A stretch of DNA of 60,443 nt, the filler included, from Rhizaria sp. SCN 62-66 (taxonomy: Eukaryota): the NCBI GenBank assembly GCA_001724265.1. It is 2 parts of 2 records of this genome, joined end to end, with 100 filler letters (N's around TTAATTAATTAA, not from the genome) between each part and the next. Parts side by side here need not be neighbours in the genome. Positions count along the whole stretch, not along the records: positions 1 to 31,033 come from MEDY01000381.1; positions 31,134 to 60,443 come from MEDY01000382.1. One strand, 5' to 3'. Below the pieces are notes generated by a model, which worked only from the letters and a program-made list of their open reading frames with translations, had not been told where the DNA came from and did not search any database. Position numbers and translations under genes: made by a program. How positions within the stretch are numbered: position 1 is the stretch's first letter; every line of letters begins with the position of its first letter. Of the stretch, positions 6,001-56,400 are shown piece after piece.

Positions 6001-6775
6001 CTGATTGCTCTTCTGTGTCGCAAGAACAATATCATGAACGCTAATACCGGCGCGAGGGCAAACATGAGTATCAGCACCGCGGGAAAGAACGAGGAGACTG
6101 TCGCTGCGCTTGCAACGGCCTCACTGGCGCTGCTGCGCACTCGCATCCTTGCATCTCGCACGGCTACAATCTACAACACTCAGAAGGGCACGTGCGCAGT
6201 TGCTGCACAGGCTCGCGCGCTTGCTGCAACCGTGGCTCCGAAAAACTCCCCTCGCCGTCGCCGCCACGGCGCCGCCGCGTTTTCACTGCCCGTGGACGCC
6301 AACGCCGTGCCCGCAGTGCTCGCGGCCGCCGGCGTCACCTCCGCTCTCCTCGCGCCCGACACGGACTGCGACAACAGCTCACTTGCTAGTGTCGGTGCCA
6401 ACAGTGCGAGTGTGATTGAGAGTGCGAGCGAGGCGGTGGCGACGGGGCTGGCGCGGGCGGAGCGGGACGCCGCCGCCGACGCCGCGGCCGAGGCCGTCGC
6501 AGGCTCGGAGACCGAGACTGCGCTGCTAATCAGGCTCGCGCTCGCGCTGGCCGCGGGTCCACAGCCACACGAGTCTGCAACTGGCTCATAGTCGCTGGCG
6601 CAGGCCCACGCACTAGAGCTGGCCTTGGAGCTTCTGTGGGTGGCTGTGCTCGCCGGCTGTGGCGTGACCGGCTACGCGGCCACAGCGCTGCGCCTGCTTG
6701 CGGCCACCGTCCATGAGAGCGTGCGGCTCGAAGCAAGAGCAAACGAGGCAGCAGCAACGTCGCTGCAGCAGCAGC

Positions 6776-6810
<35 letters not shown>

Positions 6811-8391
6811 GCTAAGATTAGCAAGGCCCCCGCAGTCAGTCCTGGCGTCGATCTGAGTGTGACCATGTGCGCGCGCGCCGACTGGCCCGACCTCGCCACC
6901 GGCGCCCTGACGCTGCCGCTGAGCGCGGTCGCGGCCCAGAGCCGCGCCCCCGCACCCGCGCGACTGCCGGCCCCCGCTCTCCGCGCGACTGACTCGCATT
7001 CACAGTCGCAGTCACTACAACAACAGCGTGGGATGCGGTCTCCTCCCCCCTCATCCCACGCCAACAGCAGCAGCACGAGTATGAGCGGCTCGAGCGACTC
7101 CGACGCCGCAGTGCTCTGGGTTCCGAGTGAAATGCTCGCCGCGGCCCGCGCCCACTAGGCGCGGCTGACGGCGCAGGACACGGCCGTGGCGGCCGCGCGC
7201 GGCGTGCCCGGCGCGTCGCTCGCGCAGGCGGGCCGGTGCACCGAGTGGGTGTGGGACGCCCGGGCGGCGTGCACGGTCACGGCGCGCTTCCCCTCGGGTA
7301 CGTAAAGTCGAAATAACAAATATGAAATGATTTGTTGTATTTTCATGATATTACGGGTGATTCAGGCGATATTCTAAGTAATTATTTTGTCCACCTTTCT
7401 TCACTCTTTTAATTACTGCATCTTTCTGTGATACATGCGACTTAACTTAATAGGTGAGAAGTCCCTCATCGTGCCTGTGCCGGCCGCCATCGTGCTGGGC
7501 CTGTTTCCGTCGCCCCGCTCGCCCGCGCTCTCGCTGGCGGAGGTGCAGCGCCGCACAGGACTGCCCACTGCACTGGCCCGCGTTGCTCTGGCCTCATTGG
7601 CGACCCCGCTGGACCACAGCAACCCGGCCTCTGCTAGTACGTCGCTCTTGATTTCTCTCTTGATGCACTCAAACGTTTTTATTTGCGAGTGTAGAGATGT
7701 GCTCATGTTGATGCGTTATTGTTTTTGTGTGTTTTTAGTTTTGCTCTGCACCCCCACTTTGCGCGAGGCGAGCTGTCAGCTCGGCGGCGTGCCCGTGCCG
7801 ACGCTCGACTGCTGTTTCGGGCCCAACGCCGCGTTCAGCGCAGCGGAGCCAGTGCTCACAGTCACTTTCGCGAGGGCAGTGCTCGCTCTTGCCCTCCACG
7901 ATTGTGACCGTGACGCTCTCACAAACAGCAACGCTGGTTCTCTCAGGCACGGTCATCATCAGGCGAACACGGACGCTGACGTTGAGCTCAAGAAGCCGGC
8001 TCGGAGCTTTGCTCCTGCCCCTTCCAAGCCGGTGGTCACGAAGAGTCCTCACGGCGCTGGAATTGCCCGCAAAACTGTCATCGACGCCGCAGTCGTCCGC
8101 ATTCTCAAGCGTGTGAAGCGAATTGACTTTGGTTCACTTGGGTCCGCAGTCGTCGCAGCGATTCCGTGGATTCCTGGTGTGCCGAGCGTCTCTGAGTCCG
8201 ATGACGGCGAGCTGGCTGCGGACGTGCCTGCGGCAGCGGGCGCAAGTTTGACTGTGACGAAGGCGGAGCTGCTACGCTCTGTGGAGTGGCTGCAGGGAGA
8301 GGAGTACCTGACAATTCAGAAACAAGATGTGACTTCCAGTGGCGGTGGCAGCGGTAGCAAGTATGATATTGTAGTCACTTACGATGGCTAA
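3052..8391 (+). CDS. Highly divergent cullin-family protein, roughly 1,700 aa, with two in-frame TAG codons (6589, 7156)
   Basis: ORFs 3043-6591, 6625-7158 and 7159-7297 are in one frame separated only by TAG. Intron 7298-7453 joins ...TVTARFPSG|EKSLIVPVPAAIVLGLF. Cullin motifs: LSVTMCARADWP, VPSEM, GRCTEWVWD, and C-terminal neddylation domain RKTVIDAAVVRILKRVK...LLRSVEWLQGEEYL. Probable further intron from ~7637 with unresolved acceptor. 5' end uncertain (possible upstream exon spliced to the acceptor at 3015). Stop TAA. Confidence 0.8.
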
Positions 8392-8950: not shown

Positions 8951-11339
8951 TCACTCGGACTTCCTGCCCTTCGCAGCCTTGAGTCCAGCATTTCCAGCGG
9001 CACCAACAGCCGTACTCGCACCCGCGTCGGCGGCGGCGCGCGGCCCCCGGCCCCTGCCCTCGCCTTGCTGGCCGCAGAGCCCCGCGGCCCATTCGCGCGT
9101 CCGCTGCCACGCCAAAGCACCGACGAACTTGCACACGTTCCACAGCCCGTGGCAGCTGCTCTTCGCCTTCAGGTCCGCCACGGTCTTGCCCCGTAGCGGG
9201 TCCACGGGCGCCTTGTCCGGCTTGTCCGCGTACAGGTCCAGCGGGCCCCCTGCGGCGAAGCCCGTGGCCGAGCCGCGCTGCGCCGTGACCTTGGCCAGCA
9301 ACTTGCGGTCCGCGGCGGCCGCGGCGGCGCGCACGCGGGCCAGCTCAGCCGCCGCCGTCGCGGCCTGCTTGCCCGCCTTGGCGCGCGCCGCAGCGTCCAC
9401 CCCGCGCTCCGCCGCGCCCTGCAGCAGCGACACGGCGAGCTTGAGGTCCGCCTCGGCCTCCTCGAAGCGCGACAGCGCCGCCAGCGCGACGCCGCGGAGC
9501 GCGCGGGCCTTGCCGTTGCCCGTGTCGCCCAGGTTGTCGATGGCGTCGGAGCACAGCGCGGCCACGGTCGCGTGGGCGCCCATCTTGGCGTTCACGACAG
9601 CCTGCGGTGACGAAACAATCACAACAAAGAAGCAGCATGGGAAAAAAATATGCAAAAATGAGATATTGTGCAATTATAAACCACAGCATTTTGAAAGAAA
9701 AAAATGTAGTGTGCAAAGTACAAGACTTAAATCCGTGTAATTCCAGTAAATATATCGTATTTCATTCAGACTTGTGATTTCTATAGGGCGGCAATCAGGG
9801 TTTGCACGTGAGAGCACGGACCTGGTTGACGAGGAAGAGTGAGGCGAGGCGCTTGTGCTCTGCGGGATGGCGCGCGCGCAAGTCCTGGTTCTCGAGTACG
9901 GTGAGCGCGCGCTGGTACTGGCGCAGTGCGGCCTGGAACTTGCCTTGCTGGAAGAGCGTCTGCCCGACCGCGCGGCGCGACTCGGCCCAAGTGAGCCGGC
10001 CGCGCGGGTCCAGCTCGTGCGCGTTGGGCTCCTTCTCGCAGCGGCCCACGGTCACAGCGAACTCGAGCGGCGCCGCGGGCGGCACCTCCTCGGGCTTCTT
10101 GGTCGCGGGGAAGCCGTAAGAGGGCGAGCAGCGGATCAGGGCCGAGTCCCCGACGTGGAGGGCTGACAACGCAACCTCGAGCCCGCGCGCGGACTGGGCG
10201 TGGCCGAGCATGATGTCCACCTCGTCCGCGCCCGAAGACACGAACTCGGTCGCGGCGTCGGCGGACAAGGGCGGCGGGGCCAGGGTGTCGGCCGAAGTGT
10301 AGGGCGGGTAGTAGCGCGCAGTGAGGGAAAAGCCCACGCGCGACAGAGGCTCGACGCGCTGGCGGGGCTCCGGTGCCGCACCCGCACTCGCGCTCGCAGT
10401 ATTGTTGTCATCACTGCCGTTGTTGTTGTTGTTGTCACTAGTGAGGAGGAGAATGACGTGATTGTCGGGTGTCACCGCAGTCCACAGGGGCCCGCCCGCG
10501 ACGCACTGCGTCGGGTCCTCGGCGCGCGGGGTGACGTACTGCGCGAACGGGGGGTACTTGTCGCTCACGACGCGCTTAGGCGGCTTGACTTTCTTCTCCT
10601 TCTTGGCGCTAGCATCGCCGTCGTTGCCATCGGCGTCAGCGTCAGCGTCGGAGTCGGAAGAGCTGGAGTCGGCGCCCGAAATGGGGGCGGCGCCGCGCAT
10701 CTTGTCCACCACGCCCTTCATCTGCTCGGCCGCGCCCTCCATCAGCGAGCGGATCGTGGCCCGCGCCTCGGCGGCGCGCGCGGCCTTGGCCTTCTCGAAC
10801 TCGGCGCGCCGCAGCAGCCGCGCGGCCTCTTCGTCCGACACGGCAGAGTCTGCGCCCACCGCGGCCACAGGCGCAGGTGCAGTCGCAGAGGCCGGGTCTG
10901 TCGCGTCGTTCGCGGTCGACTCGGAGTTGTTAGCGGCGGCAGCGGTGGCGACGAGGGAGTCGGTGTCCATGTCAAGAATGGCGTCGCTGTAGTCGCCAGC
11001 AGCAGCAGCAGTAGAAGTGGAATCGTCAGTGGTTGCCGCATCAGCATTGGCGGCATCAGCGTCGGAAAGGACGATGAACGGCTTCTCTGTCTCAATCTTG
11101 GAACCGGCCTTATCCTCAGCCTCAGCCTCAGCCTCAGCAGCCTCAGCCTCGGCTCCAACGGGATCAGCAGCAGCGGCAGCAGTAGCGCCGGCGCTGACCA
11201 CGACAGTGGCGGTGCCTGGCGCGTCCGTGTCCACCTCAAGAACGCTCTCGCCAGCGTCGATGTTTGAGTCACAGTCGTCGTAGTCGGCGTCGATGGGGGC
11301 CGGGGACGGCGGCGACGCCGCGCGCGGGGGCGACGACAT
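8951..11339 (-). CDS. FKBP-domain plus TPR-repeat immunophilin-like protein, ~722 aa, 2 exons
   Basis: Degenerate FKBP domain (IMLGHAQSARGLEVALSALHVGDSALIRCSPSYGF...VPPAAPLEFAVTV) followed by TPR helices (RRAVGQTLFQQGKFQAALRQYQRAL...; GKARALRGVALAALSRFEEAEADLKLA). Intron 9821-9602. Acidic N-terminus. Stop TGA. Confidence 0.85.
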
Positions 11340-11841
11340 GCCGAGGGACTGCGGGGGTAGCGGTGCGGAAGCAGTGGCAGGGCGAGTCAAGGGGAGTGAG
11401 ACGAACGGGAAATGAAGAGCGGGGGACGCAGAGCACGTGTGAGGAGTGTCTCGAAGAAAAATCGGCGTGGCGTGCAGAAGCGATAGATCGGCTTTACGAA
11501 GAAAGAAAATTTGGAATAATAGCCAAAAATTAATATAAATGTCGGTCTTTTATGAATTAAGTGCATCTCACGATCGCTTTATAGGCATTTCATACTTTTT
11601 AGTTCCAGGCTCCAGCCCGCTCCAGCAGCACCACAAACGCTTTGCAGCGTCAGCATGCAGCGTCAGCATCAACTCTTTGGGCGCGTCTATCGCCTGCCCG
11701 TCGGGGGCTGTGAACAAAAATTCAACAGTAAAGCACAGGTCACGTCTCAATAAACACTCCAGCATGTTTTTTTAAGTTCTGGCCCCTCATCTCAGTGCGT
11801 TAATCCGCCTTGGTATGACGGCGACATCAACTCGAAGGAGC

Positions 11842-12411: not shown

Positions 12412-12593
12412 GGGGGGTCCTGTTTGGGTCACAGCGGGCGGAGTGAAAAGTGCCGGAATACAGCGCAGATGTGTTTGTAATGAGAAAATGAAAATTGAAA
12501 TATAGTTTAAGTTGAAAAAACTCTATTGCAGTACAATAACCCGCTCACTGACGGACGTATTCACACTTTCCATATTGGCTCCGGTAGTCAGCC

Positions 12594-15404
12594 ATGTCCT
12601 TCACGACGGTGCAGCTGGCCGTGCCAGGCGACTACGCAGAGCTGTCCGCGCGAGCCCAATACCCCGACGTAGCGCGCCAGCTCAGGACTGCGGGTACAAC
12701 CATGCTCTACGTACCTTCCTCCGCGCTCTCCAGTGCACATGAGTCTATTTTCGAGGACGACATCTACAGTAGCAAGATCGGCGGCACGGCCATCTACCCC
12801 GCGCGCTTCGCAGACGTGCCGCGCCCGCAATGCGCGGCCTGCAACGCGCCGCTGCTGCTGCTCGCGCAGGTGTCCGCGCCCTTTGACGTCTTTACCGCGC
12901 TGCCCGCCGGCAACAAGCCCTCGCTCGCAGTGCTGCCTGCCGCCGCGGCCCGCGCTATGACCGCTGCCATGCAGTCGCAGTCTAGCTCGAGCTCCAGCTC
13001 GCTAACGCCTGCCGCGGTGGCCGCCGCGGGCGCACACAGGCTGACGCGCTGCCTCTACGTCTGGGGCTGCAACAGCGCCGCGTGCAGCGGCGTCGCGGGC
13101 TCCTGGTGTGCGCTCGTCGCGTCGTCGGGCGAATGCGACGGTGACGACCATGGCAGTGACGCCACGGAGCCCATCGCGGCGGCCGAGGTCGAGGCGCTCC
13201 GGGCGGAGGGCGTCGTCGCGGCCACGGCGGCGGACGTGGCGGCCGCGGCGGCGAGCTTTGCCTCTTGCGACAGCGACGTTTCATCCGACGACGATGACGA
13301 TGACGGGGACAACGGCCGTAAGAACAGCGACACTGCGGAGGCCAAGGCTGCCAAGGCGGCTGCAGCGACGGCGGCGGCGACCGCTGCTATTGCTGCCACG
13401 CTGCCCGAAATCACAAGCATCGCCGCCCTGACTGGCCATGGCAACAAGCCCTCGCACAGCAGCAACAACAACAGCAGCAACAGTAAGAGCAAGAGCTCTA
13501 GTGCCGCTGCAACTACTGCAGCGAAAGACATGTTTGCCGTCAACTGGTCTGACGATGACGATGAGGACGGCGCCAGCGGTGGTGCCGCTGTTGCTGCGAC
13601 GACCGCTGCGAAGCCTGCCGGTGGCCTTTTCGGCAGCTTTGGTGGAGCAGCCAACGTAAGCAACAGCAGCGCAAACAGCAGCGGTGGCGGTGGTGGGATG
13701 GCTTCGCTGGCGGCGCTGCTTGACGCGCGCGATGCCAAGGGGGACAAGAAGAGCAAGAAGGACAAGAAGGCGGCCGCCGCTGCTGCTGCACCTGCGACTG
13801 GCGGACTCAGTGGTGTCAATGATGGCGAGCAACTTGTCGCTGCGGCCGCTGCCGTCTACGCCCCCGTCGCGCAAAACACAACTGCAGCGCCGACGACGAA
13901 GACTGCTAAGACGGCGGTGAATGCGTTTGCTGTCGACATGAACTTTGGTGACAGCGACGACGGCGAAGACGCCTCAAACAAGAACGCCAAGCCCGCGCCC
14001 GCCGTGCCTGAGCCGGAGCCTGAGGCTGCTGCAAAGGCTGCGTCCAGCGATAGTCCCGAGGACGATAAGGAGGAAGAGGAGGAGGAGGAGGAGGACGAGG
14101 GCAATGTCACCGGCGTCGGCGCCACCGGCACCAGCACCAGCCCTGAGGCCGAGGCCGAGGCCGCCGCTATTGAGGCCGCCGCCGATGCCGCCGCGGAGGC
14201 TGCCGCGGCCGCCGGTGCACTACACCCGTCATCGAGCTCCCCCGAATCCAGCTCCAGCTCTGACGCCAGTGCAAACGTCACTGGCGCTGCTGTCGCCAAC
14301 GCCGGCGCTAAGAGTGGCGCTGGTGCTGACGCTGAGGCTGATGTCGCTGTCGCCGCCGCTGCCGCCTTCGCCGCCGCCTCAGCCTCCGCCGCCGCCGCCG
14401 CTGCCGCCGCCAGCGCCGCCGCCGCCGCCGCTGCGGGCGCGGGCGATACGGTCGTGCCGGTACTGCGGCCGTTTTTCCTCAACTGGCAGGACGAGCCCGC
14501 GCCCTCCGCGGCAGGCAAGCGGTTGAAGGCTGCCAAAAGCGGCGCCGGCGGCGCGAGCGCGGCCGACGCGCGCGCGAACGCGCTGCTGCAGCAGTTCCTC
14601 ACCCAGCACGGCCCTCTGCCCTCGGGCTCCAGCTCCGGCTCTGGCTCCGGCCCCAGCGTCAGCGCCAGCTCGAGCTCGAAGAAGAGCGCCAGTGCTGCTG
14701 CTGCTGCTGGTGGCGGCGAATGGGCCGGGGAGGCGTACGAGTCCTCCGCCGATAAGCCGCTGCGCCGCTTCATGGCGCGCACGCGGCTGTGCGCGACGCA
14801 GTGCATTCGGTACTGGCCGCTGCGGCCCGCGCAGGCGCTGTCGATGCACGCGCCGCTCCCGCCACCGCTCGCCTCGGCCAGCGGCAGCGGCGGCGGCGCC
14901 GTGGCGGCGCTGAGCGCGGGCGGACTGCTGTCCGCCGTGCTGGACGCGGTGCCCGCCGACCGGCGCTCGCGCGCTGCGAAGCTCGCCGCGGACGCGTACC
15001 GCGGGCTGGCCGGCGCGGCGGGCGCCGAGGAGAGCGACGAGGCGGCCGCCGCGGCTGCCAAGGGCAAGAAGGGCGCTGCTGCTGCTGCTGCCACCGGTCC
15101 TGGCGCTGGCGCTGCTGCGAAGAACAAGGGCAAGGGCAAGGGCGACTCTGCTGGCACTACCGCCGGAAGCGCTGCTGCTGCCGCGACGAGTGTGGCCGAG
15201 GCGGTGGCGGTGCCGTGCTGCGCGCACTGCGGCGGCGCGCTGCGGCTTGAGGCGCAGCTGATGCCTAACACACTCAACGAGCTCGCGCTGCCGCTGGGCG
15301 CGATGGAGTGGGGCGTGGTCGACGTCTACGCGTGCGCCGCCGTCTGCCGCAGGGGGGCCAAGCAGCTCGCGCTCGGCTTCTGCGTTGTGCACCCGGCTGT
15401 GTGA
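12594..15404 (+). CDS. PDCD2L: PDCD2-like/Tsr4 family protein (uS5 chaperone family), 936 aa, inflated by low-complexity insertions
   Basis: N-terminal SKIGG...PQCAACNAPLLLLAQVSAP...RCLYVWGCNSAAC and C-terminal PDCD2_C motifs (GEAYE...FMARTRLCATQCIRY; VPCCAHCGGALRLEAQLMPNTL...MEWGVVDVYAC). No MYND finger seen. Stop TGA. Confidence 0.85.
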   Translation: MSFTTVQLAVPGDYAELSARAQYPDVARQLRTAGTTMLYVPSSALSSAHESIFEDDIYSSKIGGTAIYPARFADVPRPQCAACNAPLLLLAQVSAPFDVFTALPAGNKPSLAVLPAAAARAMTAAMQSQSSSSSSSLTPAAVAAAGAHRLTRCLYVWGCNSAACSGVAGSWCALVASSGECDGDDHGSDATEPIAAAEVEALRAEGVVAATAADVAAAAASFASCDSDVSSDDDDDDGDNGRKNSDTAEAKAAKAAAATAAATAAIAATLPEITSIAALTGHGNKPSHSSNNNSSNSKSKSSSAAATTAAKDMFAVNWSDDDDEDGASGGAAVAATTAAKPAGGLFGSFGGAANVSNSSANSSGGGGGMASLAALLDARDAKGDKKSKKDKKAAAAAAAPATGGLSGVNDGEQLVAAAAAVYAPVAQNTTAAPTTKTAKTAVNAFAVDMNFGDSDDGEDASNKNAKPAPAVPEPEPEAAAKAASSDSPEDDKEEEEEEEEDEGNVTGVGATGTSTSPEAEAEAAAIEAAADAAAEAAAAAGALHPSSSSPESSSSSDASANVTGAAVANAGAKSGAGADAEADVAVAAAAAFAAASASAAAAAAAASAAAAAAAGAGDTVVPVLRPFFLNWQDEPAPSAAGKRLKAAKSGAGGASAADARANALLQQFLTQHGPLPSGSSSGSGSGPSVSASSSSKKSASAAAAAGGGEWAGEAYESSADKPLRRFMARTRLCATQCIRYWPLRPAQALSMHAPLPPPLASASGSGGGAVAALSAGGLLSAVLDAVPADRRSRAAKLAADAYRGLAGAAGAEESDEAAAAAAKGKKGAAAAAATGPGAGAAAKNKGKGKGDSAGTTAGSAAAAATSVAEAVAVPCCAHCGGALRLEAQLMPNTLNELALPLGAMEWGVVDVYACAAVCRRGAKQLALGFCVVHPAV

Positions 15405-18583: not shown

Positions 18584-19698
18584 TTAGTCGTGCGCGGCGA
18601 TGCCGCCCGCAGCGCCCGCAGTGTGCGCAGTGGCCGCGGCGGCCACACCCACGGGGTACGAGGCGAGCTTGTTGTTGCAGCCGTTGCTGCTGGCGTTGTT
18701 GCCGTTGTTGTTGAGTCCGCCAAGCACTGACAGCTTCGCGGGCGACCCCGCGCAGCCGTTGCCCGCCGCAGCAGCGGCGCCGGCGGCAACGCTGGCGTTG
18801 GAGCTGGTGCCGGTGTGCGCGAGCGAGTAGGATGAGGTGAGCGGGGAGCCCGTGGCCGAGGCCGAGCACGACGTGCTGCAGGGGCCGGCCACGGTCGAGG
18901 CCGCGAGCGAGTCGGAGCGCGACGCGGCGACCTCGAGCGACAGCCCGCTGCCCCCGTGGCCGACGCCGGGGCCCGCGCCCGAGGCGGCGGAGAGGGAGCC
19001 CGAGCGCGTGCCCAGCGGCGGCAGCGCGCTCGCCGTGGCGGGGGCGCTGTCGGTGGCGCGGACGGGGAAGCCGTTGCCGTTGCCATTGCAGTTGTTGCTG
19101 ACGCTGTTGGACGGCGAAGGCGCTGTCGCGTGCATGGCCGGGCTGGAGCCGGAGCCGCGCGCGCGCGCGCCGTTGTCGAACAGCGCGGTCCCGTTGCCGG
19201 CGCCGCCGGTGATGACGCTGCTGCTGTTAGCGGTGAAGCCGAGCCCACCGAGCCCGAGGCCGAAGCCGGCGCCGACGCCGTCCGCGCCCGCCGAGAGCGC
19301 GAGCGTGCGGGGCGACACGGGGTGGCCGTGGCCGCCGTGGGGGCCGGCGGAGAGGTGCGCGGTGGAGGCGGCCGAGTTGGCCGAAAGCAGGTGGTAGTGG
19401 CTGGTGTCATGGACCGAGGTCGAGGCGGGGGAAGGCACGACTGAGACCGAGTGACCGTGGGCGGCGGCCAGGTCCAGCGCGGCCGCGGAGAAGCCCAGCG
19501 GGGGCAGCGCCTGCTGGTGCTGCTGCTGGTGCTGCTGCTGGTAGAGAGCGCTGCCGAACGAGTGCGAGTGCGTCATGCCGCTCCCGCTCCCGTTGCCGTT
19601 GCTGTTGTTGCTGTTGTTGCTGTTGTTGTTGTTGTTGCTGTTGTTATTGAGACTGTAACTTGCCTACGAGAGCGCAATGGTGTGCTGCTGGCCGGCCA

Positions 19699-19743
<45 letters not shown>

Positions 19744-19946
19744 AGTAGTTGGCTGCAACCACGGTCCCAGAGGCAGGGCCGGCGCTGCCGTTATTGCCAT
19801 TACCGTTGTTGTTGCTGGCGATGTGGCTGTGGCTGCTGATGGAGCTCAGTGCGGCCGCCAGCGCGGGGCTGTCGCCGATGCTGCTGCCGACGCCGCTGCC
19901 GCGGCTGCTGAGCCCGGCAGACTGGCCCTGCTGCTGTTGTTGCTGT

Positions 19947-19978
<32 letters not shown>

Positions 19979-20215
19979 TTGGATTTGCTGCTGCAGCATG
20001 ATCTGCTGCATCTGCTGCTGCATCTGCGCCTGCTGCTGCTGTTGCTGCTGCTGCGCGTGCTGCTGCAGCTGGAGCTGCACGTGCGCGTGCACGAAGGCCT
20101 GCACCGACACGGGATCTACCAGCCCGGCCGCGGCCGCGGCCGCGGCGGCCACGGCAGCCGCCTGCGACAGCGGCAGCTGCCCCTGCTGCTGCTGCTGCTG
20201 CTGCTGCGCTTGGTG

Positions 20216-20249
<34 letters not shown>

Positions 20250-21138: not shown

Positions 21139-21185
<47 letters not shown>

Positions 21186-21350
21186 AGGAGACCGCGGTTA
21201 GCGTGACTGTTGTTATGATTGCTGTTAATGTTGGCAGTGGACGTGGGGGCAAAACCAGTGACGCTGCTGCTGTTACTGCTGCCGTTGCTGCTGGCGTTGC
21301 TGCCCTTGGGTCGCACGGGCCCCGGGCCGGCGTTGCCATTACCGCCGCCA

Positions 21351-21381
<31 letters not shown>

Positions 21382-25600: not shown

Positions 25601-25874
25601 GACAAAGCAAGGAGCCAATGCGAGTGCGAATGCCACTGTGCGGGCGCTGGCGGTGACTGCGTGCGTGGCGCGCGCGGGGCTCTTGGTGACGCTGCCAGCG
25701 ACTGCGACCGGGAATGCGGCCGCGGCGGCGGCGGCGGAGGCGATCGTGGCGGCGGCGGTGCGGGCGGCGGCGCGGCGAGGATTGCTGTCCGAGAAGGAAT
25801 CTGACGCTATTCAACGTGGCGACTTGGCTGACATCGTTGCCGCCGCGGCGGCTGACGAGGGTAACCACGAGTGA
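22690..25874 (+). CDS. UFL1: E3 UFM1-protein ligase 1 homolog, ~1,007 aa, 2 exons
   Basis: Exon 22690-22704 (MNAEI), intron 22705-22865 (gtacgt...tacag), then ASLFSQLRASQLSAPAPRLSDRACLSVLRLL...LVPTLSGRALLTPERLDADL...YGGRLEVAALPDLLDVDAVHL, matching the UFL1 N-terminal pattern (RLSERNC...TLDGKEYITP...GGRV...NVD). Stop TGA. Confidence 0.8.
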
Positions 25875-47400: not shown

Positions 47401-50400
47401 CATACATCGGTGCCACACAGAGCGTGTGGCCCGCCGACGGACTTGTTGCCGCGCTTACTACTGCGCGATTGTCGCTGCTTCCCGCGCGCCCTCTCCCACA
47501 TAAAACAATTGTGCTATACGAAGTGCTCACGGACAACGTGAGGTGCGCTATCTCTATGAACAAGACTTTACTCGACCACATGACGGAGTCACAAACAGCG
47601 TTCAACAATGGTGATTTTGAAAATGGTGTTGACCTTAACAAATACGTTGGTGATACACCGATTGGCGCAACTGCTATTGACGTCTACGCGCTATGTGACA
47701 CGAGTGGTGTAGAGTACAGCCCTGTCCGTGTGCGCTACACTGTCCTTAAGGGTACACCACTTCGCGATTTAGCTATCGGCACCGGTGTTTTTGAACTCAT
47801 CGTGCGCAATCGCATGCGCGTGCGGTCACTTGTACAGCCTCTCGGTGATACACCAATTGACAATGTGGGTTTCAAAACGCTGCCCGCGGCGCTGCGTGTT
47901 GAGTATGCGTTCTCGAAGGCTGTTAACACGTTAATTCACGTTTCCTCTGATACCATTGATGTTTGCGTATTTAGCAGCTATGACGGACAGGAACTTGGTA
48001 GCGAGTTTGACCTTACTATTGCAAATCTTACAGGTGTGGACAACGTGATGTTTGCATGCTCTGAGCCGCGCGCCAACATCACACTAACTGTGACGCATCT
48101 TTCAAACGACAACGTTACAACTATTAAAGATCACGTTGGCCCATTCCACATTTATGGTGAGCTGACCGTAACGCTTCAGGCCGACAATAGCGCTGCTGTT
48201 GCAACAATTGCTGGCCATGGGGCCGTAAACGTAGTTTCAGTTCCGCTGGCAGTACCGCATACGTTGATTATTGCAACCACTCCTGTGACTGCCGGCGCTG
48301 ATCTTATTGCGGAAATCTCACATCAAAGCGGCAAGTGTGTCTTTGCCAGTACATCTAGCTGCGTGACGGATGCCGCAGGCCAATGCAAGTTAATGCTGTC
48401 TTGCGGTGCGCCGGCACAGACGCCACCATCTGTGATAGTACGCGGCTACGGCATCTATGCATTTGTCACGGCTGTTTCTGCTCCGCTGCAAACAAAGGGT
48501 AACCTTATTGTCGAGCAGCTTGACATTGTAAATCCCGGCCGGCCGTACTATTTAGCGGGCGAATACTACCGCGTGCGTGTAGCGTTTGACCCGCAGCCGG
48601 AGGAACCTGTGATTGTTCGCGTGTCGCAAACAACAACAATGGCCAGCTGCATGTTTACTCTGACTGGGGATACGTCACGTATGCAACGCACGATTCAGTG
48701 GCAGCATACAGCTCTGTTTGATGAACTTTTGTTCGGGCTGGTCTGCAGTCGCCCGCACGCAGTCGGCTCGCTCATCGCCCTCGAAACAGTTGCATATATG
48801 CCATATAACCTTGGCCCGACAATCACATATGGTCGCATGTCTCTCGACTTCCGTCTGCCGACGGGAATTGTGGGCCCCCAGTCCATTGACGTGACTGATA
48901 TGGCTGCGCGTCTTCAATTATCAAACGCGCCTGTCGGACAACCGCTTCCTCTTCGCAAGCCGCATTATCTGCGGGCTCCACTGACAAACTTGACAACGTT
49001 CAGGATTCGCCTGCAGCCCGCTGTTGTAGTTCTTACTCTCATCAATCTCAAGATGACGTCTGCACTCTCGGGCTGTCAATTTTCCATTTTCAAGTCAGGA
49101 GGTGGCTCTGAGCAACTGGGTGCGAACGCGCAGGTTTCTGCCGTATTAGGCGAGACCGAGCATGACGTGTTAGTTTCTTGTGAGCTTCCGAAGAGTAGCA
49201 GCTTTTCTATTATTGCAGAAATCTCGTCTGGCAGCCCATACGTCCCGCTAGTGTCGCTTCCAATGCAGCCGCGTGGCACTGTCCTGATGACAACGTCTGG
49301 CGTTCCCGCTGCCTCTGCTTTTACTGGGGAAATTTTCTCACTGCGCCGTTGGGTTATGCGGTTTATGCTCAGCCCGCTGCCAGCGGAGACTGTGACGCTG
49401 ACCTTTGTTGTTGCCTCAGGCCCGAATAAGGATCTAGTGCCAAGTTGCAGGTTTTACGGTGAGACGGATGCAGACATCACAGATGCTGGCCGTGAAAACA
49501 CCCTTGTTTTTACACCCACCATGGTTATGGTTGGCGTAGCGGTGATTTGTGATGTTTCGCTTAAGGACAGTGCCTACATTCAGGTGCACAATAATGAGGA
49601 GCTTTACGACGAGTTTTCATCAGCGCCCTTCCGTGTGCGTGGCGCTGTGTGGACTGAAGATGCCGCGTTACCACAGTTCAGTCAATTCCCCGGCACTGCG
49701 TCCACATACGTTGATGTTGCTGTCGGGGTCTCTCATTTGATTCGCATGCGTGTCGTCCCAACCTGGTCTCAGGCTGTTAACATGACACTGTCCGTTAATG
49801 TCACTAGTTGTGGTGTTGGTCTATACGATGCAGAAAGCTTTGATGGTAGTATTGCACCGCCTGACCATGGCGGTACCGTTGTCATCATTGATGCTGATGC
49901 GATTCCTGTTTTCTCCGACATTAACGTTACAATTCCCGCCAACGCTGATATTGTGTTAGCCGTCTTGCGCTGTAGCACAGTTGCACACTACATCACCGTC
50001 ACCTTGGGTCCGAGTGACCCTGGTAAGGTATTTGCAAGCACGCACATAACAGGAAGCTTCTCTGCAAGTAACCGTTTTGAAGTGCGCAACCTGCCGGCAA
50101 CGCTGCACATGCGTGAGCCCGTGCTAATGGAGCTCGGTGTCCTGCCTTTTGGTGCAATTGCCGGTCTTGGTCAGTCAACTGTAGTGCGAGTGTCCACTAA
50201 CTCAGCTTTTGCGAACTGCTCCGTAGCGCGCGTCGCCGGCTCAAGCACCGCTGTTCCTGCAGAGACGTTATGGTCGTCTGTAAATGAGACAGCCTCGTTC
50301 TTGCTCACAATCAGTGCAGCCAGCGCAGGCTCTTTGTGGGTCCGTTGCTGGCAACACACCGTTAACGGCGCGGGAGTTGCTGTGGAAGGCGCTGTTAAGC

Positions 50401-53400
50401 CACAATTCAAATTTGGGCACTCGAGTGGGGTTGCATTTCTAACCAGGGTGAGTGCGGAGATTGATGTTGTTTTTATTGACTGCGGTGCAATGCCAAAGTT
50501 GACTTATGGTAACACAGTCTATGAAGACAACGGTTTTGGTTCCATGGCGTACTTGGCGCGTGCAACAGCGTCTTGTGAAACAGGGTATGATCTTGCCACA
50601 AGTGCCGGAGTTGTGGTAACATGTGCGACACTACCGTGTCGTTGGACCGCGACATGCCAAGCTGCAGGGTGGAGTGAGTCAGCGCCGCACTGTGCTATTC
50701 ATAACTGCGGCGCGGCGCCTCCGACAGACAACAAAACTGCTTCTGGGCCCACGTACGCGGTTGCTGGCAACAACGGTGGCGCAACTACTTATGGCGCTGT
50801 GGTTACTTATGGATGCGCAGAGGGTTATGAATCTTCTGGTACAACTGCATCAATACGCTGCACACCAACAGGCTGGTCACAGCCAACTGCGCCCACATGT
50901 ACACCCGTAACCTGTCCTGCGCTGGCCATCGGTGCCAACACGTTGCAGCCAGCGTACGGCACGACACCCAATGGCATGCGTCGGTACCTTTCCACAGCAA
51001 CGTATGAGTGCCTGCCGGGTCACACATTAGACTCAGGCAGTCTCACTCTGATGTGCCGTGCAGACCGTACGTGGAGCGGTGCACCGCCAGTGTGCCGTAC
51101 CAATATGTGCCTCCATATTTCACACGACTCCTCAACGCAAAAGCCGATCAGCTTCTCGTTTAACGGTAAGGTTACAACGGCCGACAAGGCAACAGGGTTC
51201 TTTTTTGTGGACACAGTCGCCGAGTATAGCTGTGCTGACGGCTACAGTTGGGTTGACCCAAATGGTTCACGCACGCGAACGTGTGTTTATGACGAAGGCT
51301 GGTTACCCGTGCTTGCACCACGCTGCCTGCCCGTACCATGCCCATCGCTAGAGTCTCTTTTCTACGGCTCAATTAAGCAGGAGCCCGCAGAATTGATGAA
51401 CCTCTATGGTGTTACTGCTACCTACATGTGTGCGTACGGCGCTACAGTGACGCCACCTGGGAACATTATTAGTTGCATGGCAGATGGTAAATGGTCCGCC
51501 TCCCCGCGCACTTGTCAACCTTACCAGTGCACCTCCCCAACTGCATTTGCAAGCGGGCAGGTACAGGAAATTACGACAGGTGTTAACGGCCCTTTTTCCA
51601 ACAACTCAGTGATTGAATATCGCTGCAATACGGGGTTTAACCTTGTGTATCCTGGAGTTGCAATTGATACAAAGTATTACCTACCTATCACAACAGGAGC
51701 AGGTGTTGCGATTGAGGTTGGTCGCCGCGAGTGTACGCCCAACGGCTGGCTCCCGTCTACGCTTCCGCAGTGCGTTATTCATGAGTGCAGTACGTTGGTA
51801 GGCACAAGCAATGTTGCATCAATCACTTATTTCAATAACAACGGTGCAACCCTGCCGCAATACGGTACTGTTGCAACTTATACATGCTCCCCAGGCTATG
51901 AGACGCGCGACAGCAACGACAACGTTGTTGCGAACTCTCGTCTCTGCGGCTCGCGTGATCAGGGGTGGTTGCCGTTTGACCCACCTCGCTGTATGCCCGT
52001 GGATTGCGGTGTAATTACTAAAATCGACATCGAAAACGCTCTTCCAATTGAGTATACTTGGGATTCAGTCACTGTCAAAGGTCCCACGCGTCTCAGCGCT
52101 ACAGTTGACTACAACTGCAAGCCGGGCTTTGCGTTTAGCGATGGCAACAGCACTTTCACTCGCACATGCAGCGCCACACGACAGTGGGTTCCTGTCGAAC
52201 CCACATGCACTGATATTAATGAATGTGATGCTAATTTGTTTGGTGGGAAGTACTTTGTAAACTGCACAGCTTTGCACGGCGTCCAGTCACAGTGCGTCAA
52301 CACGTTTGGTAGCAACATTTGCGTTCCACTTGTAACAACTGCGCCGTTCCAGCCGTACGCAGTTTCTGGCAGTGTATTGTTTAATGCTGCTGACAATGTG
52401 TTCACGCCCGGCAACACTGCTGGAGGCCAGCGCATCATGTTTGCTGTGCGTGCTGGTGCGGGGCTTGTGGAACCGTTCTTCAGCCGTGTACGATACCTTA
52501 ACCCTGACAAAGCTCTTTATGACGACCCCGCGATGTTGCAATATGAGTGTAAAAACGTCGAAGTTGTCGCGGCAAATGCGGCGGCAAGCGTTGCAGCTGG
52601 TTACTCCTACTTTGCAGTTTCGTGTGAGTTGTCACCAGGACAGGGAGAAGGGCTGTTTGTCTCGCTGCAGTACTGTGTTAGCGTATATGGTCGTGGCGAA
52701 CCTGACTGCTCACGATGGAATTGGGACTGGCAGGGCACACGCGGCACAATCGATATGGAACAAATACCAATCAACGAACGCTTGCGAATTACCTACCCAA
52801 TGCCCGCATTTGTGCCACGCTCGCTGCAGAGCGTCACTATGGGCGGCTTGACGCAAATGACTGATGAATATGTCAGTCAGACCTCGCTTGGTGAAGATAT
52901 TCTCATGGCTGTTAACAACTTCTATTTGGACCGCCCTGAGCTTATCACATTACGCTACGGTGAAGCGCTCACAGAGAACGATTTCCCTTACATCTGCGAT
53001 TTTAATCATTTGATGGCAGTGCAATATAGCGGCTATATGCTTGTCACTGCTTGTCGCACACAGGATCGCGTTAACCTTATTGATTTACGTTTCCGGCTTT
53101 GCATTGCAGGTCGCTGCACAGTGTCGACTGACAGGTACTCGTACCCACAGATTCCCGAGATTACGTCCGTGTATGGTTGCGCAGTCGATGATATTCTGAA
53201 CGGGCGCACACAGAACTGCCCGACTGACGGTGCCGACGTCCGGCTCACAGTCGCTGGCACTGGATTCCTTGAGCCGTTGTCACTCATCATTAGTGGCCGT
53301 CAGTGTCTGCATCTTGAGCGGGCGAATAACACATACTTTACATGCTCACTGCCTGTTGGCGCCGGTGAAGCGTTATCTGTAACAGTCAAGGCTGGATCAC

Positions 53401-56400
53401 AGCGCACTGAGTCGCGCAACCGCCTCTCATACGCAAGTCCCACAATCATAGGCATCCGTGGCTGTGAACCCGTGTCTGACGTTTATATTCGTGAGTGTAA
53501 CCGCCTTGGTGGCAACATAATCGAACTGACAGGCCACAACTTTGGAATCACTGCTTCTACAATCATGGTCGGTGGTCAAAATTGCGTCAATGTTACGCAT
53601 GACCCATCACGACCACATGAACGTGTCACCTGCACCACGCCTAGTGGCTCCGCAAGCGAACGCACAGTCACACTACTTCAGCGCTACGGCACAATGTCTC
53701 TTGAAAACATTTTGCTCTCGTACGTGCAGTGTCCTCCAGGTCGGTACGGCGTTGATATAGTGTGCCTTCCGTGTGAGACTGGGTATTTTAATGACATGTG
53801 GTCACAAACATCGTGTCGGCAATGCACACCTGGTCTCTACTCAAACGAGACCGGCGCAACCAGCTGCTTTGTATGTCCTGCCGGTCACCATTCAGAGCTG
53901 GGTGCACACTCTTGCGGTGTATGTCCGCGCGGCACATTTTCCGGTGAGCGCTCTGGCTCGTGTATGCAGTGCCCGTCAGGCACTTTTGCCCAGTACGAGG
54001 GCTCTTCCGTCTGCGAAGCTTGCCCGCTTGGTGCTGAGAGTAACGAAGACTACACATTCTGTCGCTGCACCGTGGGCACATACATGGATGCCGACGGTGA
54101 GTGCGTTAAATGCATGCTTGGCGGCGACTGTACTGCGCCTGGTACAACCATTTACAACATTCATTCATTGCCCGGCTACGCACCAGCAGTTGTCCGGCAC
54201 AAGCGTGACAGCGTTGTACGCATGAGGCTGTACGTGCCCGTGAACAGCGCGACAGAGCAAGCGCGCAAGAGTGCCCGCGCCACGGTTACAAAACTGCTTT
54301 ATGACAACTCAAGCTTACCGTTTGAGCGCATCGTACTTGCTGGACTCGAGTTTTTGACTGAAGGAGAGCTCAAAGCTTCCAAGCTTGCTGCTGGAGAAGA
54401 CGGGAAGAATGGCACTAGCAATCAGTCTGATAAGAAAGACAGTGTGCTGATCTTCAGCGCAAACGCCGTGCTTATTACGACAGATAATGCAACTTATCCG
54501 TTAGTCTTTGGCGCAACGCTACGCGCTGATGCAGCACTTGTTGCTGTTGTAGATGTTAATGTGTACCCAAATGCTTCAGGTGCGTACGCATTTGAAAACT
54601 CAAGTGAAGCGCTCTATCAACGCGTTGTAGAGCAGCTTATTGCAAACTCTGCACTCGTTTTCTCAAGGGGTAGTGAAGCTGTGCTAACTGGCGATGGCAT
54701 AACACGTGACCCAGACTTTGAACGTTTCGCAACGCCATCATTTGAACTTTGCATCAATGGTGCATGTCGCGGTAACGACGTCTGCCTTGAAGGCCATACT
54801 GGCAACTTATGTGCGGTGTGTCTTTCCGGCTATGGTAAGAGCTCGTCGTTTGAGTGCGCGCGCTGCAATACGCCTGCATTGCGTACGTTCCTGCTTGTGC
54901 TCGCTATTCTTGGTGCAATCGCGGTCTGCACTGTCTTGGTATGGAAGCAGATTGTCGACGGTAAACAGTCAATGAACGAGCTGCCTGCGCCCGCAGTGCC
55001 GTTATTGCTAAAGGTTGCCACATCGGGTCTGCAAGTTATGTCCATTGCCGCGCGCTATGACCTCCAGTGGCCCGGTTTCCTCGCAAGCGTATTTGATACC
55101 GCTGATACCGCTGGTGGCGTTGGAACAGCATTCCTTTCGCTTGATTGTTTCCTGGCTGAGGACCCAGCAGTGCAGCCCTTCTGGGTGACCACGATCAGCA
55201 TGATGGTGTTGCCGTTGGCGGGCGTTGTACTGCCGGCAATGGTATTTGTGCCGATGTACTTTAGTGAACGCCGCCATTACCGGAAAGACTTGTTAAAACG
55301 TGCTGCTGAGGAGCGTGCATTGTCGGCCGAGGTTATAATGGAGCTGAAAAACAGTGAGAAGCGCGACCGTGGCGAGCATCTTCAGCAACGTCGTGAGAAG
55401 ATGGCAAATGAAAACACATTGGTTTGGGATCTGATTGACGAGAAGGAAGGTCTTACTGTTGATAATCTTGTCAGTATTCACCCTTTTACTGAACAAACCG
55501 TAAGCCGGAACTCAAACAATCAAATCAATGTAACCTCGAGTGTTGTGCGACGGGGCGATTCTTCAAGTAACAGCATCAGTGTTGATGACAACAGCGGCAA
55601 CGGGCGCCAAAGTGTCGCAACTGCTCCCAAAAAACGTCGCGTGATTCGAAAGCCACGTATGGCCAACTCTGTAGGCGATATCACCAAATCGCCGCTTCCG
55701 CCACCAGTGCGCCCGCCTGTTCATGGTCGCGTGGACAGCAATGTCTCGGAGGAAGACGATGATAAAGGTCTCTGTGAGTTTGGTGTCACTCCAGTCGTAA
55801 TGGACAGCAGAATTGCCCCAAGCAGTCCTAAGCTTTTGGCAAACGCATCTCCGATGCTGCGCTCAAACTCTAGCCTGTCTTTTGGCTCTGTTGTCGGCTC
55901 AACTGGGCTTGGTAGTGAGCCCGCGTCGCCTACTTTTGGTGCTGTTGCAGTTCCCGGTGGTCGCGTGTCTCGTGCTTTGCCAGCATTGGGACCTAGCAGC
56001 TAGCATCAAGCAATGCTTGCGGCCGCAGCCAACTCTCCCTTTTTGCGTCCTAGCCTTCGTGGTCCCGCAGCAGTAGCCGCGCTTGGAAACGGCAGGGAAC
56101 GTGGTAGTGCGAAGTTTGCATCTTCCGGCAGCCCCTCAATGTCGCCATTGTTTGTGTCCTTGCCTGACTCTGTTGTTAAGAATGGTGTCGGACACACGTA
56201 TAGTCCTCGCCTTGGTGCGCAGACGGTTGCGTACGGTGCCCTTGTAAGCCGTGTTGGCTCTTTATCCCGTGTGGCATCCTTCTCGTTGCTGAGTAGCGCG
56301 AAAATTGGAAACAGTCCGTTAATGCAAACAAAGAAACTGCAGCAACAACAGGTGCAACAGGATCATTCACCATCTGCATTAAGGCGCGGATCTTTTTCCG

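Follow-up and report, generated by a model that had tools for sequence, protein, structure and literature searches.

Genes and in-frame TAG codons in the window

The stretch of DNA analysed here (60,443 nucleotides from assembly GCA_001724265.1, deposited as Rhizaria sp. SCN 62-66; hereafter the window) includes a contig that carries at least eight genes on both strands, one of them 26 kb long (Table 1). GC content averages about 57% over the window and reaches 0.62-0.70 in most genes, with GC3 values of up to 0.9, and the verified introns have GT..AG ends and lengths of 156-220 nt. A tRNA scan and an Rfam scan of the window returned no match, and eRF1 is not among its genes.

A first-pass annotation had proposed that UAG is a sense codon in this organism and that UAA and UGA remain stops, on the basis of six in-frame TAG codons in four unrelated genes. 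A base check found all six where they had been placed. The seven gene models established here comprise 15,465 codons, and a census of in-frame stops yielded six TAGs, distributed over four of the seven genes, and not a single TAA or TGA, as had been claimed. Likewise, no motif that might indicate programmed readthrough is common to the 3' contexts of the six TAGs. If UAG specifies glutamine, it would account for 6 of the 517 putative Gln codons of the window (about 1.2%). A seventh TAG, at 29852 in the frame of an ankyrin gene, was rejected as coding, since the DNA around it is AT-rich and the gene probably starts further downstream, at about 29921.

Several of the gene identities are supported by domain matches. 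The Ariadne/RBR gene matches the Pfam families IBR, IBR_1 and UBA_ARI1. Word-based homologue searches with the Ariadne and UFL1 proteins recovered only the window's own proteins, and look-ups in the Atlas yielded nothing beyond weak hits and generic RBR clusters of eukaryotes. The label ‘cullin’ is less firmly based: the sole family match of this gene is indeed Cullin_Nedd8, but its score of 27.0 bits falls short of the cut-off of 36.9, and a phmmer search against the PDB found no true match, with nothing but poly-Q noise for the upstream piece and no hit for the last exon. For the FKBP + TPR gene, a spliced cDNA contig of run X9 joins 9600 to 9821, and the TGA that ends the gene is found after splicing.

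Table 1. Gene models, in-frame TAG codons and frames that stay open when TAG is tolerated, in window coordinates.
Feature	Position	Strand	Remarks
‘Cullin-like’ gene	3052..8391	+	exon 3052-7298, intron 7299-7454 (156 nt, GT..AG, frame kept), exon 7455-8391; TAA with TGA directly after
TAG-tolerant frame	2974..7305	+	1,443 codons open, 2 TAGs
TAG no. 1 of ‘cullin-like’ gene	6589..6591	+	inside long Ala-rich ORF; base check
TAG no. 2 of ‘cullin-like’ gene	7156..7158	+	141 nt upstream of 5' splice site
FKBP + TPR gene	8951..11549	-	Pfam; no TAG; intron 9601-9820; TGA end
PDCD2_C-domain gene (PDCD2-like)	12588..15404	+	Pfam; no in-frame TAG; TGA end
Cold-shock-domain (CSD) gene	18584..21886	-	Pfam CSD, E 2.4e-18; TAA end
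TAG-tolerant frame	22027..18584	-	1,147 codons open, 1 TAG
TAG of cold-shock-domain gene	19664..19666	-	CTA on + strand; 293 codons past CSD domain
UFM1-ligase (UFL1) gene	22647..25874	+	Pfam; no TAG; TGA end
Ariadne/RBR E3 ligase gene	26344..29412	+	exon 26344-26622, intron 26623-26811, exon 26812-29412; TAA end
TAG of Ariadne/RBR gene	26449..26451	+	codon 36, exon 1
Giant gene	32460..58943	+	intronless, 8,827 codons, ends in TAA
TAG-tolerant frame	32430..58943	+	8,837 codons open, 2 TAGs
TAG of giant gene	33600..33602	+	codon 381
TAG of giant gene	56001..56003	+	codon 7848; loop between two transmembrane blocks

Coding signal and transcripts across the TAG codons

The first-pass annotation had stated that each TAG is followed by the same frame in the same codon style. 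This impression is borne out by a codon-usage log-odds model trained on four TAG-free genes, in which the continuing frame scores best after all six TAGs, although the margin is narrow for the two shortest segments; two non-coding controls scored negative in all six frames. In the GC-rich genes, GC3 past the TAGs stays at 0.78-1.0. After TAG 6589, for example, the continuing frame scores 0.19 versus -0.04 or lower in the others, at a GC3 of 0.78. The 46 codons between TAG 7156 and the splice site have a GC3 of 1.0, and their translation contains no ATG. After TAG 19664 the frame runs on for 359 codons with a GC3 of 0.93, and scores 0.40 versus 0.01 or lower elsewhere. For TAG 33600 of the giant gene, the segment that precedes the codon scores 0.10 in frame versus -0.34 or lower in the alternatives. 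A mini-intron around this TAG was rejected, the sole GT..AG pair available being 13 nt.

Contigs from other studies were compared with one 20-kb stretch of the window, and TAGs 6589, 33600 and 56001 lie outside this stretch. DNA runs X1-X4 contain the contig, and the polyA RNA derives from a study of activated sludge. The first-pass annotation had called for confirmation in RNA, and for TAG 26449 this is at hand: cDNA contig 31 of run X9 matches 26333-26622 with no differences, keeps the TAG unchanged, and then joins 26622 to 26812. The 189 nt that are skipped have GT..AG ends, and the TAG lies outside the removed intron. The same TAG is retained by DNA contigs of runs X4 and X2, which come from other studies and years. 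A polyA-RNA contig of run X6 carries a T>C difference at 7122 that is at least 123 nt from the contig end, which means that the contig covers 7156 as well, and no change at TAG 7156 is among the differences listed. In the cold-shock-domain gene, polyA-RNA contigs cover 18766-19424, and none among the contigs listed spans TAG 19664.

These data bear on the reading that none of the TAGs is translated, whether as true stops in front of chance GC-rich frames, as sites within UTRs or introns, as artefacts of assembly, or as nonsense mutations in genes that are decaying. The Ariadne gene offers some room for it, in that an in-frame ATG at 26566, downstream of the TAG, could serve as an alternative start, so that TAG 26449 could be the end of a 35-codon upstream ORF. 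The coding signal beyond all six TAGs, in a window whose non-coding DNA scores negative, and the recurrence of TAG 26449 outside an intron in the runs of three other studies speak against it.

A giant surface-protein gene and its relative

The largest gene bears most directly on this issue. Its product carries Sushi, TIG, Ephrin_rec_like and DUF7630 domains followed by C-terminal membrane blocks, as in a surface protein. The gene has a GC content of about 50%, and its two TAGs are the sole in-frame stops, without any TAA or TGA. Under the standard code it would be read as three pieces of 390, 7,466 and 979 codons, all in one frame, and at this GC content frames as long as the first and the last piece do not stay open by chance. 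The 380 codons that precede TAG 33600 begin with what appears by eye to be a signal peptide, and the 979 codons downstream of TAG 56001 contain a transmembrane block. The alignment extends to both sides of TAG 56001 in at least 13 uninterrupted homologues (P0006-13, P0031, P0039, P0056, P0069, P0071, P0082 and P0099), whose membrane block is part of the same polypeptide as the segment ahead of the TAG. No homologue of the first 800 amino acids was found among longer proteins, and a phmmer search with the first 900 against all fetched proteins gave no match. Pieces with the same boundaries are on record, a 380-aa ORF bounded by TAG 33600 on seven contigs and a 7,463-aa ORF bounded by TAG 56001 on four.

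A scan of metagenomes recovered one locus of a relative, L001, and scans of genome contigs and viral contigs yielded nothing further. The L001 contig is orthologous to the giant gene (69% identical over 2,658 aligned columns), and its open frame of 2,726 codons contains three TAGs but no TAA or TGA. Judged from sequence, the signal-peptide-like start and the membrane block that belongs to the same chain in homologues would together settle the sense reading of TAG in the giant gene, and the untranslated reading is largely refuted there.

Chance and the weight of the statistics

The probabilities that the first-pass annotation had attached to its counts, among them about 0.001 for six TAGs out of six in-frame stops, proved too optimistic. 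They assumed that the three stops arise in equal thirds, which is not the proper null because, under the GC-rich codon usage of these genes, TAG is the outcome of 40-74% of the single-base changes that create a stop. Multiplied together, these TAG fractions give a probability of about 0.03 for six out of six. When the three TAGs of L001 are included with the six of the window, the probability that random nonsense changes would produce TAG at all nine sites falls to 0.004-0.007. The absence of in-frame TAA is only weakly significant: if TAA stood to CAA as TAG does to CAG, simple arithmetic on the codon counts predicts about 3.4 in-frame TAAs, and the probability of seeing none is about 0.03. 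All of these figures derive from seven genes and one relative contig.

Frames free of TAA and TGA are weak evidence for sense UAG in GC-rich genes, because the antisense frames of such genes share this property. The antisense frame 26781..29510 runs without TAA or TGA for 909 codons and contains eight TAGs, and that of 12545..15421 does so for 958 codons with seven TAGs. Such frames of more than 900 codons, together with the status of TAG as the commonest nonsense change under this codon usage, speak for the view that the TAGs are untranslated. Against these considerations stand the giant gene, with its lower GC content, its homologues that run across TAG 56001 and its recurrent ORF boundaries, and L001, with its further TAGs and no other stop. 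We therefore regard untranslated TAGs as a highly improbable explanation overall.

Gene ends and terminators

Seven gene ends are secure. Four are TAA (‘cullin-like’, CSD, Ariadne and giant genes) and three are TGA (FKBP, PDCD2-like and UFL1 genes), and an uncertain eighth, that of the ankyrin ORF, is also TGA. No gene ends in TAG, be it among the seven secure ends or among eight. The first-pass annotation had counted 12 ends, all TAA or TGA; the absence of TAG stands, but the number that could be verified is seven plus one uncertain case. Translation beyond the four TAAs would add only 0, 42, 12 and 12 further codons, with GC3 falling. The retention of UAA and UGA as stops, which had also been proposed, is thus supported by every gene end examined, by the short read-on past the TAAs and by the absence of both codons from the reading frames.

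With only seven or eight ends sampled, TAG might still terminate a minority of genes, which, together with the low in-frame usage of the codon, leaves some space for a dual-use code of the Condylostoma type, in which UAG is sense within genes and can terminate near transcript ends. The ends observed do not include such a case, and dual use was not found in any of the UAG-only lineages so far described (PMC11687900). A dual role for UAG is therefore considered unlikely.

The amino acid probably specified by UAG

Three TAG sites can be aligned among three species (the window organism, L001 and the source of protein P0005) at 60-69% identity. Two of the L001 TAGs, at 947 and 1859, both fall within conserved Sushi repeats, and each faces Q in the window as well as in P0005. 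For TAG 56001 of the window, the residue opposite is Q in P0005 and V in L001. Glutamine thus accounts for five of the six aligned residues and valine for one; L, Y, E and K are not represented. Opposite the two L001 TAGs the window has CAG and CAA, which differ from TAG by one base and two bases, respectively. Two homologous ORF pieces, P0009 and P0015, end opposite E and D of the window, and these ends may equally be contig ends.

Residues in two other species hence suggest that glutamine, which the first-pass annotation had favoured, is most likely the meaning of UAG, rather than leucine. Assignment to another amino acid, such as Tyr, Glu, Lys or the Leu of the rhizarian exLh, draws on the small number of alignable sites, on the one valine, and on the fact that none of the six TAGs of the window falls in a strongly conserved column. 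It fares poorly against the five glutamines, the two sites within well-conserved repeats, and the CAG and CAA codons found opposite, and we judge its probability to be slight.

UAG makes up 3 of the 83 putative Gln codons in L001, and the two species share none of the five TAG positions found in the region of the giant gene represented in L001. Near-cognate readthrough of UAG often inserts glutamine. It is conceivable, then, that the standard code applies and that UAG is a leaky terminator, which a near-cognate tRNA-Gln reads through at some sites to give full-length protein at reduced yield; stop codon readthrough mediated by such a tRNA has been described (PMC13192750). The rarity of the codon in frame, at 6 in 15,465 codons, and its different positions in different species would suit this mechanism. 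However, a leaky stop at codon 381 of 8,827 would waste most translation of the giant gene, and TAGs are found in four of seven genes of the window and three times in 2,726 codons of L001. In addition, no gene ends in TAG though the GC3 of these genes would favour it, and the six 3' contexts differ. Leaky termination is accordingly an improbable account of these TAGs.

Interpretation and significance

The explanation we prefer, with a probability of roughly three in four, is that the window represents nuclear DNA of an uncultured GC-rich eukaryote from bioreactor and wastewater metagenomes in which UAG is a sense codon, most likely for glutamine, and UAA and UGA terminate translation, and that at least one relative, L001, uses the same code. 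The proposal that UAG is sense gains support from TAGs within coding sequence, a TAG in spliced RNA, alignment with glutamine and the lack of TAG gene ends.

According to this sense-codon model, normal elongation would insert an amino acid at UAG in both the window organism and the L001 species, and the codon would serve as a rare synonym of CAG and CAA. Changes from CAG or CAA to TAG would be tolerated and would be turning over, as is suggested by the differing TAG positions of the two species and the rarity of the codon. By analogy with UAG-only codes elsewhere, decoding is predicted to depend on a dedicated tRNA-Gln whose CUA anticodon pairs with UAG but not UAA, and eRF1 is predicted to have lost efficient recognition of UAG. 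Tolerated readthrough and a dual-use codon would likewise be compatible with so low a usage of UAG.

At least three species, represented by the window, L001 and P0005, from reactor, wastewater and other metagenomes, belong to the clade concerned. Whether they record an independent origin of a code with UAG as Gln and the stops UAA and UGA, in its early phase or still little used, within an unsampled GC-rich clade that is neither ciliate nor fornicate, is a proposition for and against which we hold the odds to be even. If correct, it would present a case of stop codon capture in a genome pressed towards GC instead of AT, and, with UAG at 1-4% of Gln codons, a natural system for examining the spread of a stop codon soon after its release. 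Separation of UAG from UAA is rare in nuclei, and each new origin tests the idea of a mechanistic coupling between the two codons. There is also a practical consequence. Gene callers that apply the standard or bacterial code split the genes of this organism, as seen in a public protein collection where the giant gene appears as pieces of 380 and 7,463 amino acids, and eukaryotic bins from wastewater therefore need NCBI translation table 15 for correct annotation.

Comparison with known nuclear codes

The code proposed here matches NCBI translation table 15 (TAG = Q; TAA and TGA stops), which yields an unbroken translation of all seven gene models. This table provides a formal description and is silent on lineage or mechanism. 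Nuclear codes that separate UAG from UAA are known from Iotanema, a rhizarian, Scotinosphaera and a few ciliate lineages (PMC11687900). The variant itself is therefore already known from Iotanema and several ciliates, and the window probably adds a new lineage to it. We found no report in the literature, supplementary files being outside the scope of the search, of a GC-rich non-ciliate eukaryote from wastewater with UAG as Gln.

A nuclear code with UAG as Gln and with the terminators UAA and UGA was described for the fornicate Iotanema spirale (Panek et al. 2017, PMC5304391). It is similar in that UAG occupies Gln positions and, in that description as in the window, UAG gene ends are absent and both other stops are retained. 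A change in the GTS motif of eRF1 has been noted for I. spirale (PMC9161772). The two differ in UAG density, with 204 in 126 genes reported for I. spirale versus 6 in 7 genes (15,465 codons) here, and in the main terminator, which is UAA in I. spirale, whereas TGA ends about half of the genes of the window. The GC content of the window and its verified introns are further points of difference.

Among ciliates, UAG alone is reassigned to Gln in the phyllopharyngeans Hartmannula sinica and Trochilia petrani and in Protocruzia tuzeti (McGowan et al. 2024, PMC11687900), with UAA still a stop, as is the case here. In phyllopharyngeans with reassigned UAG, the codon is found in 78-91% of genes, UAA provides 87-98% of gene ends, UGA is the rarest stop, and GC content is 27-54% (PMC11687900). 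The window departs from this pattern in that TGA ends three or four of its seven or eight genes and TAG represents about 1% of Gln codons. It differs in genome character as well, given the GC content of most of its genes and a contig that holds at least eight of them on both strands.

The rhizarian exLh and the TARA phyllopharyngean MAGs read only UAG as Leu. They resemble the present case in the uncoupling of UAG from UAA, presumably through a tRNA whose anticodon is CUA, and differ in the amino acid, since leucine is found at none of the six aligned residues here and glutamine at five. Codes in which both UAR codons specify Gln (NCBI table 6), as in many ciliates, Hexamita, Ulvophyceae and the aphelid Amoeboaphelidium (PMC11687900), likewise reassign a stop to glutamine, but here TAA ends four of the seven or eight genes and never appears in frame in 15,465 codons of the window and 2,726 of L001. 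The combination of a GC-rich genome, frequent use of TGA as a terminator and rare UAG codons at species-specific positions is unusual, and the reassignment has more the look of a recent or little-used change than of the saturated cases of ciliates.

Genes of the window and their in-frame TAG codons

The window is a eukaryotic contig of 60,443 bases in which most genes have a GC content of 0.62-0.70; DNA between the genes, in UTRs and in introns is AT-rich. Metagenome sequencing runs of 2015-2025 from bioreactors, wastewater and activated sludge contain near-identical DNA. A scan of the whole window returned no tRNA or Rfam match. Most genes carry Pfam domains, but the 'cullin' of the first-pass annotation is retained only as cullin-like, since its Cullin_Nedd8 match is sub-threshold (27.0 bits versus a cut-off of 36.9); a comparison of this gene with solved structures gave no match.

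Genes of the window, with in-frame TAG codons, gene ends and codon-usage scores after the TAGs of the GC-rich genes
Gene	Position	Identification	In-frame TAG	Gene end	Continuing frame	Next best frame
Cullin-like		Cullin_Nedd8, sub-threshold	6589	TAA	0.19	-0.04
Cullin-like			7156 (short segment)		0.29	0.19
PDCD2-like		PDCD2_C domain (Pfam)		TGA		
CSD		Cold-shock domain (Pfam)	19664-19666 (-)	TAA	0.40	0.01
Ariadne		Ariadne/RBR E3 ligase (Pfam)	26449 (short segment)	TAA	0.18	0.16
UFL1		UFM1 ligase (Pfam)		TGA		
FKBP		FKBP+TPR (Pfam)		TGA (after splicing)		
Ankyrin ORF		Ankyrin (Pfam)		TGA (uncertain)		
Giant gene	32460-58943	Sushi, TIG, Ephrin_rec_like and DUF7630 domains (Pfam)	33600	TAA		
Giant gene			56001			

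Several features of the window are recorded here for completeness. There are 89 N, namely a single N at 987 and two 44-base gaps (31034-31077 and 31090-31133) downstream of the ankyrin ORF and ahead of the giant gene, so the sequence is scaffolded between these two. In the proteins of 2974-7298 and 18584-22027, low-complexity inserts reach great length; they comprise poly-Ala, poly-Gln, runs of Asn and His-Gly repeats, and they swamped word-based homologue searches. The AT-rich region between the PDCD2-like and CSD genes (15500-18580, GC about 0.44) is where most SNPs and indels separating the window from DNA run X2 fall; one 3.4-kb contig differs by 29 letters and has 24 gap positions. Contigs of runs X6 (polyA RNA) and X9 (cDNA) also cover parts of it, and therefore it probably holds long UTRs.

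In-frame stops, gene ends and chance

Sense UAG, probably read as Gln with UAA and UGA kept as stops, had been proposed from six in-frame TAG codons, and all six are present where they were reported. When TAG is read through, frames of 8,837, 1,443 and 1,147 codons are open. Seven gene models (15,465 codons) contain six TAGs, no TAA and no TGA in frame, as had been claimed. None of the seven secure ends and one less secure end uses TAG, which agrees with the proposal, although the twelve ends that it counted could not be reproduced. The cullin-like gene is closed by a tandem stop at 8389-8394, where TGA directly follows TAA.

The null of equal thirds used in that proposal is too generous, because, given the codon usage here, TAG is the outcome in 40-74% of the single-base changes that create a stop. 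The probability of six TAGs in six, taken as the product of the per-gene TAG fractions of such changes, is about 0.03; when three in-frame stops of L001, an orthologous metagenome contig of a related species, are included, that of nine in nine is 0.004-0.007. Neither TAA nor TGA occurs over more than 900 codons in two antisense frames either: 26781-29510 (-) of Ariadne (909 codons, 8 TAGs) and 12545-15421 (-) of the PDCD2-like gene (958 codons, 7 TAGs). In the GC-rich genes, a TAA- and TGA-free frame with TAGs is therefore not in itself evidence of coding. Given these frames and the modest chance probabilities, the case for sense UAG rests on other evidence.

That no TAA occurs in frame is of only modest significance. 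Were TAA to stand to CAA as TAG does to CAG, the window and L001 together should contain about 3.4 in-frame TAAs, and the probability of none is about 0.03. Reading on past the four TAA ends leads to the next TGA after 0, 42, 12 and 12 codons, and GC3 drops to 0.25-0.58.

Coding signal after the TAGs

A codon-usage model trained on four TAG-free genes and scored in six frames ranks the continuing frame first after every TAG, and two non-coding controls score negative in all six frames. GC3 downstream of the TAGs in GC-rich genes is 0.78, 1.0 and 0.93. In the cullin-like gene, a 156-nt GT..AG intron joins both exons in frame, and no ATG lies in the stretch from TAG 7156 to the splice site.

RNA and independent DNA at the TAG sites

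Contigs of four runs with near-identical sequence were compared with the window over 7000-26999 (20 kb), a range that leaves TAGs 6589, 33600 and 56001 outside. TAG 26449 is retained in a spliced cDNA, X9 contig 31 (depth 20), which matches 26333-26622 without difference and then continues at 26812, omitting a 189-nt segment bounded by GT and AG. DNA contigs of X4 (no differences) and X2 (one difference, at 26148) keep both this TAG and the intron. On the evidence of 26449 alone, the Ariadne TAG could instead end a 35-codon upstream ORF, and an in-frame ATG does follow it at 26566.

The FKBP intron is likewise spliced, as a 220-nt skip on the minus strand in X9 contig 26. An X6 contig with T>C at 7122, a position at least 123 nt from the contig end, spans 7156 and has no change there among the differences listed. 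The region 18766-19424, which lies downstream of the TAG in the CSD gene, is represented in X6 contigs; among the contigs listed for the four runs, none spans 19664. Two of the three verified introns, 7299-7454 and 26623-26811, are multiples of three with the same frame on either side. Retention of either would truncate the protein, because each has TAA or TGA in frame.

A giant gene with two in-frame TAGs

The giant gene runs for 26.5 kb without an intron. Its GC is 0.50 and its GC3 0.49, compared with 0.62-0.70 and 0.74-0.93 in its neighbours, and at this composition its open frame cannot be due to chance. Read with the standard code, the gene breaks into stretches of 390, 7,466 and 979 codons that share a frame and are parted only by the two TAGs; the first of the three opens with what by eye resembles a signal peptide. 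A mini-intron around TAG 33600 was rejected, as the sole GT..AG pair is 13 nt apart versus 156, 189 and 220 nt in verified introns.

Collinear orthologues were found by a full HMMER search that used 1,200 residues of the giant protein as query. In BLASTP with the whole protein, at least 13 uninterrupted homologues align on both sides of TAG 56001 (to residues about 7,610-7,745 before it and about 8,180-8,795 after it), with identity of up to 59% in the C-terminal membrane block; thus, one conserved polypeptide spans this TAG. In public assemblies, the exact ORF pieces bounded by the giant-gene TAGs are recorded on 7 and 4 contigs, which speaks against an error confined to the assembly of this contig as the source of the TAGs. 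The family, of 7,000-8,000 residues and known almost only from metagenomes, combines Sushi, TIG, Ephrin_rec_like and DUF7630 domains with two membrane blocks parted by a long disordered loop.

Relatives and the identity of the amino acid

L001 is a whole contig of 8,179 nt from a metagenome scan. Its frame spans the entire contig with 2,726 codons that include three TAGs and no TAA or TGA, and in 2,658 aligned columns its product shares 69% identity with the giant protein of the window. P0005, a homologue from a third species, is 68% identical to the window protein and 60% to L001. Two L001 TAGs, at 947 and 1859, lie in conserved Sushi repeats where the window has Q (codons CAG and CAA, respectively) and P0005 also has Q. 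Window TAG 56001 lies in a gappy loop, opposite Q in P0005 and V in L001; L001 TAG 5780 is within an insertion and so is uninformative. Five of the six aligned residues are therefore Q and none is L, which supports Gln, also over Leu; Gln makes up about 2.8% of the protein. None of five TAG positions in the region that both cover is common to the window and L001.

A number of more distant orthologues, homologous from their first residue, are ORF pieces that begin with M in mid-protein and sit within far longer contigs: P0007 (3,500 aa on 80 kb), P0012 (2,219 aa on 30 kb), P0013 (1,960 aa on 14 kb) and P0114 (420 aa on 17 kb). P0005 and P0155 are likewise mid-protein pieces on contigs several times the ORF size, and both end at the same residue. 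Such pieces on much longer contigs hint that these further relatives may also have in-frame stops.

Decoding of UAG

UAG occurs within coding sequence, with one site kept in mature RNA; its sites align to Gln, and it is avoided at gene ends. Leaky readthrough, or dual use of the codon, may be considered because UAG is rare (6/517 putative Gln codons in the window, 3/83 in L001). However, a TAG occurs already at codon 381 of the 8,827-codon giant gene, TAGs are found in four of seven genes and no gene ends with one, all of which favours regular decoding. Such decoding would involve a putative tRNA-Gln with anticodon CUA, which should pair with UAG and not with UAA, and an eRF1 with weakened UAG recognition. 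Passages of PMC5304391 make the same tRNA argument for Iotanema and the rhizarian, as do passages of PMC11687900 for ciliates. The observation behind the first-pass annotation is real, and its reading of UAG as Gln with UAA and UGA as stops is supported by these sequences, a small sample.

Comparison with known codes

The assignment corresponds to NCBI table 15, and this kind of code is already known. UAG encodes Gln with UAA still a stop in Iotanema spirale (described in part of PMC5304391) and in the ciliates Hartmannula sinica, Trochilia petrani and Protocruzia tuzeti; the sections of PMC11687900 on these codes also describe UAG as Leu in a rhizarian and TARA ciliate MAGs and as Ser in Scotinosphaera. 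We found no report in the literature, supplementary files aside, of a GC-rich, non-ciliate wastewater eukaryote with this code. The organism of the window does not resemble the phyllopharyngean cases. As described in those sections, these end 87-98% of their genes with UAA, use UGA least among the stops, carry UAG in 78-91% of genes and have a GC of 27-54%. In the window, by contrast, about half of the genes have TGA as their stop, UAG is infrequent and coding sequence is rich in GC. What is new is probably the lineage, a clade with at least two species whose DNA shows in-frame TAGs. The setting is unusual, too: the genome is rich in GC, TGA stops are frequent, and UAG is used little and at unconserved positions.
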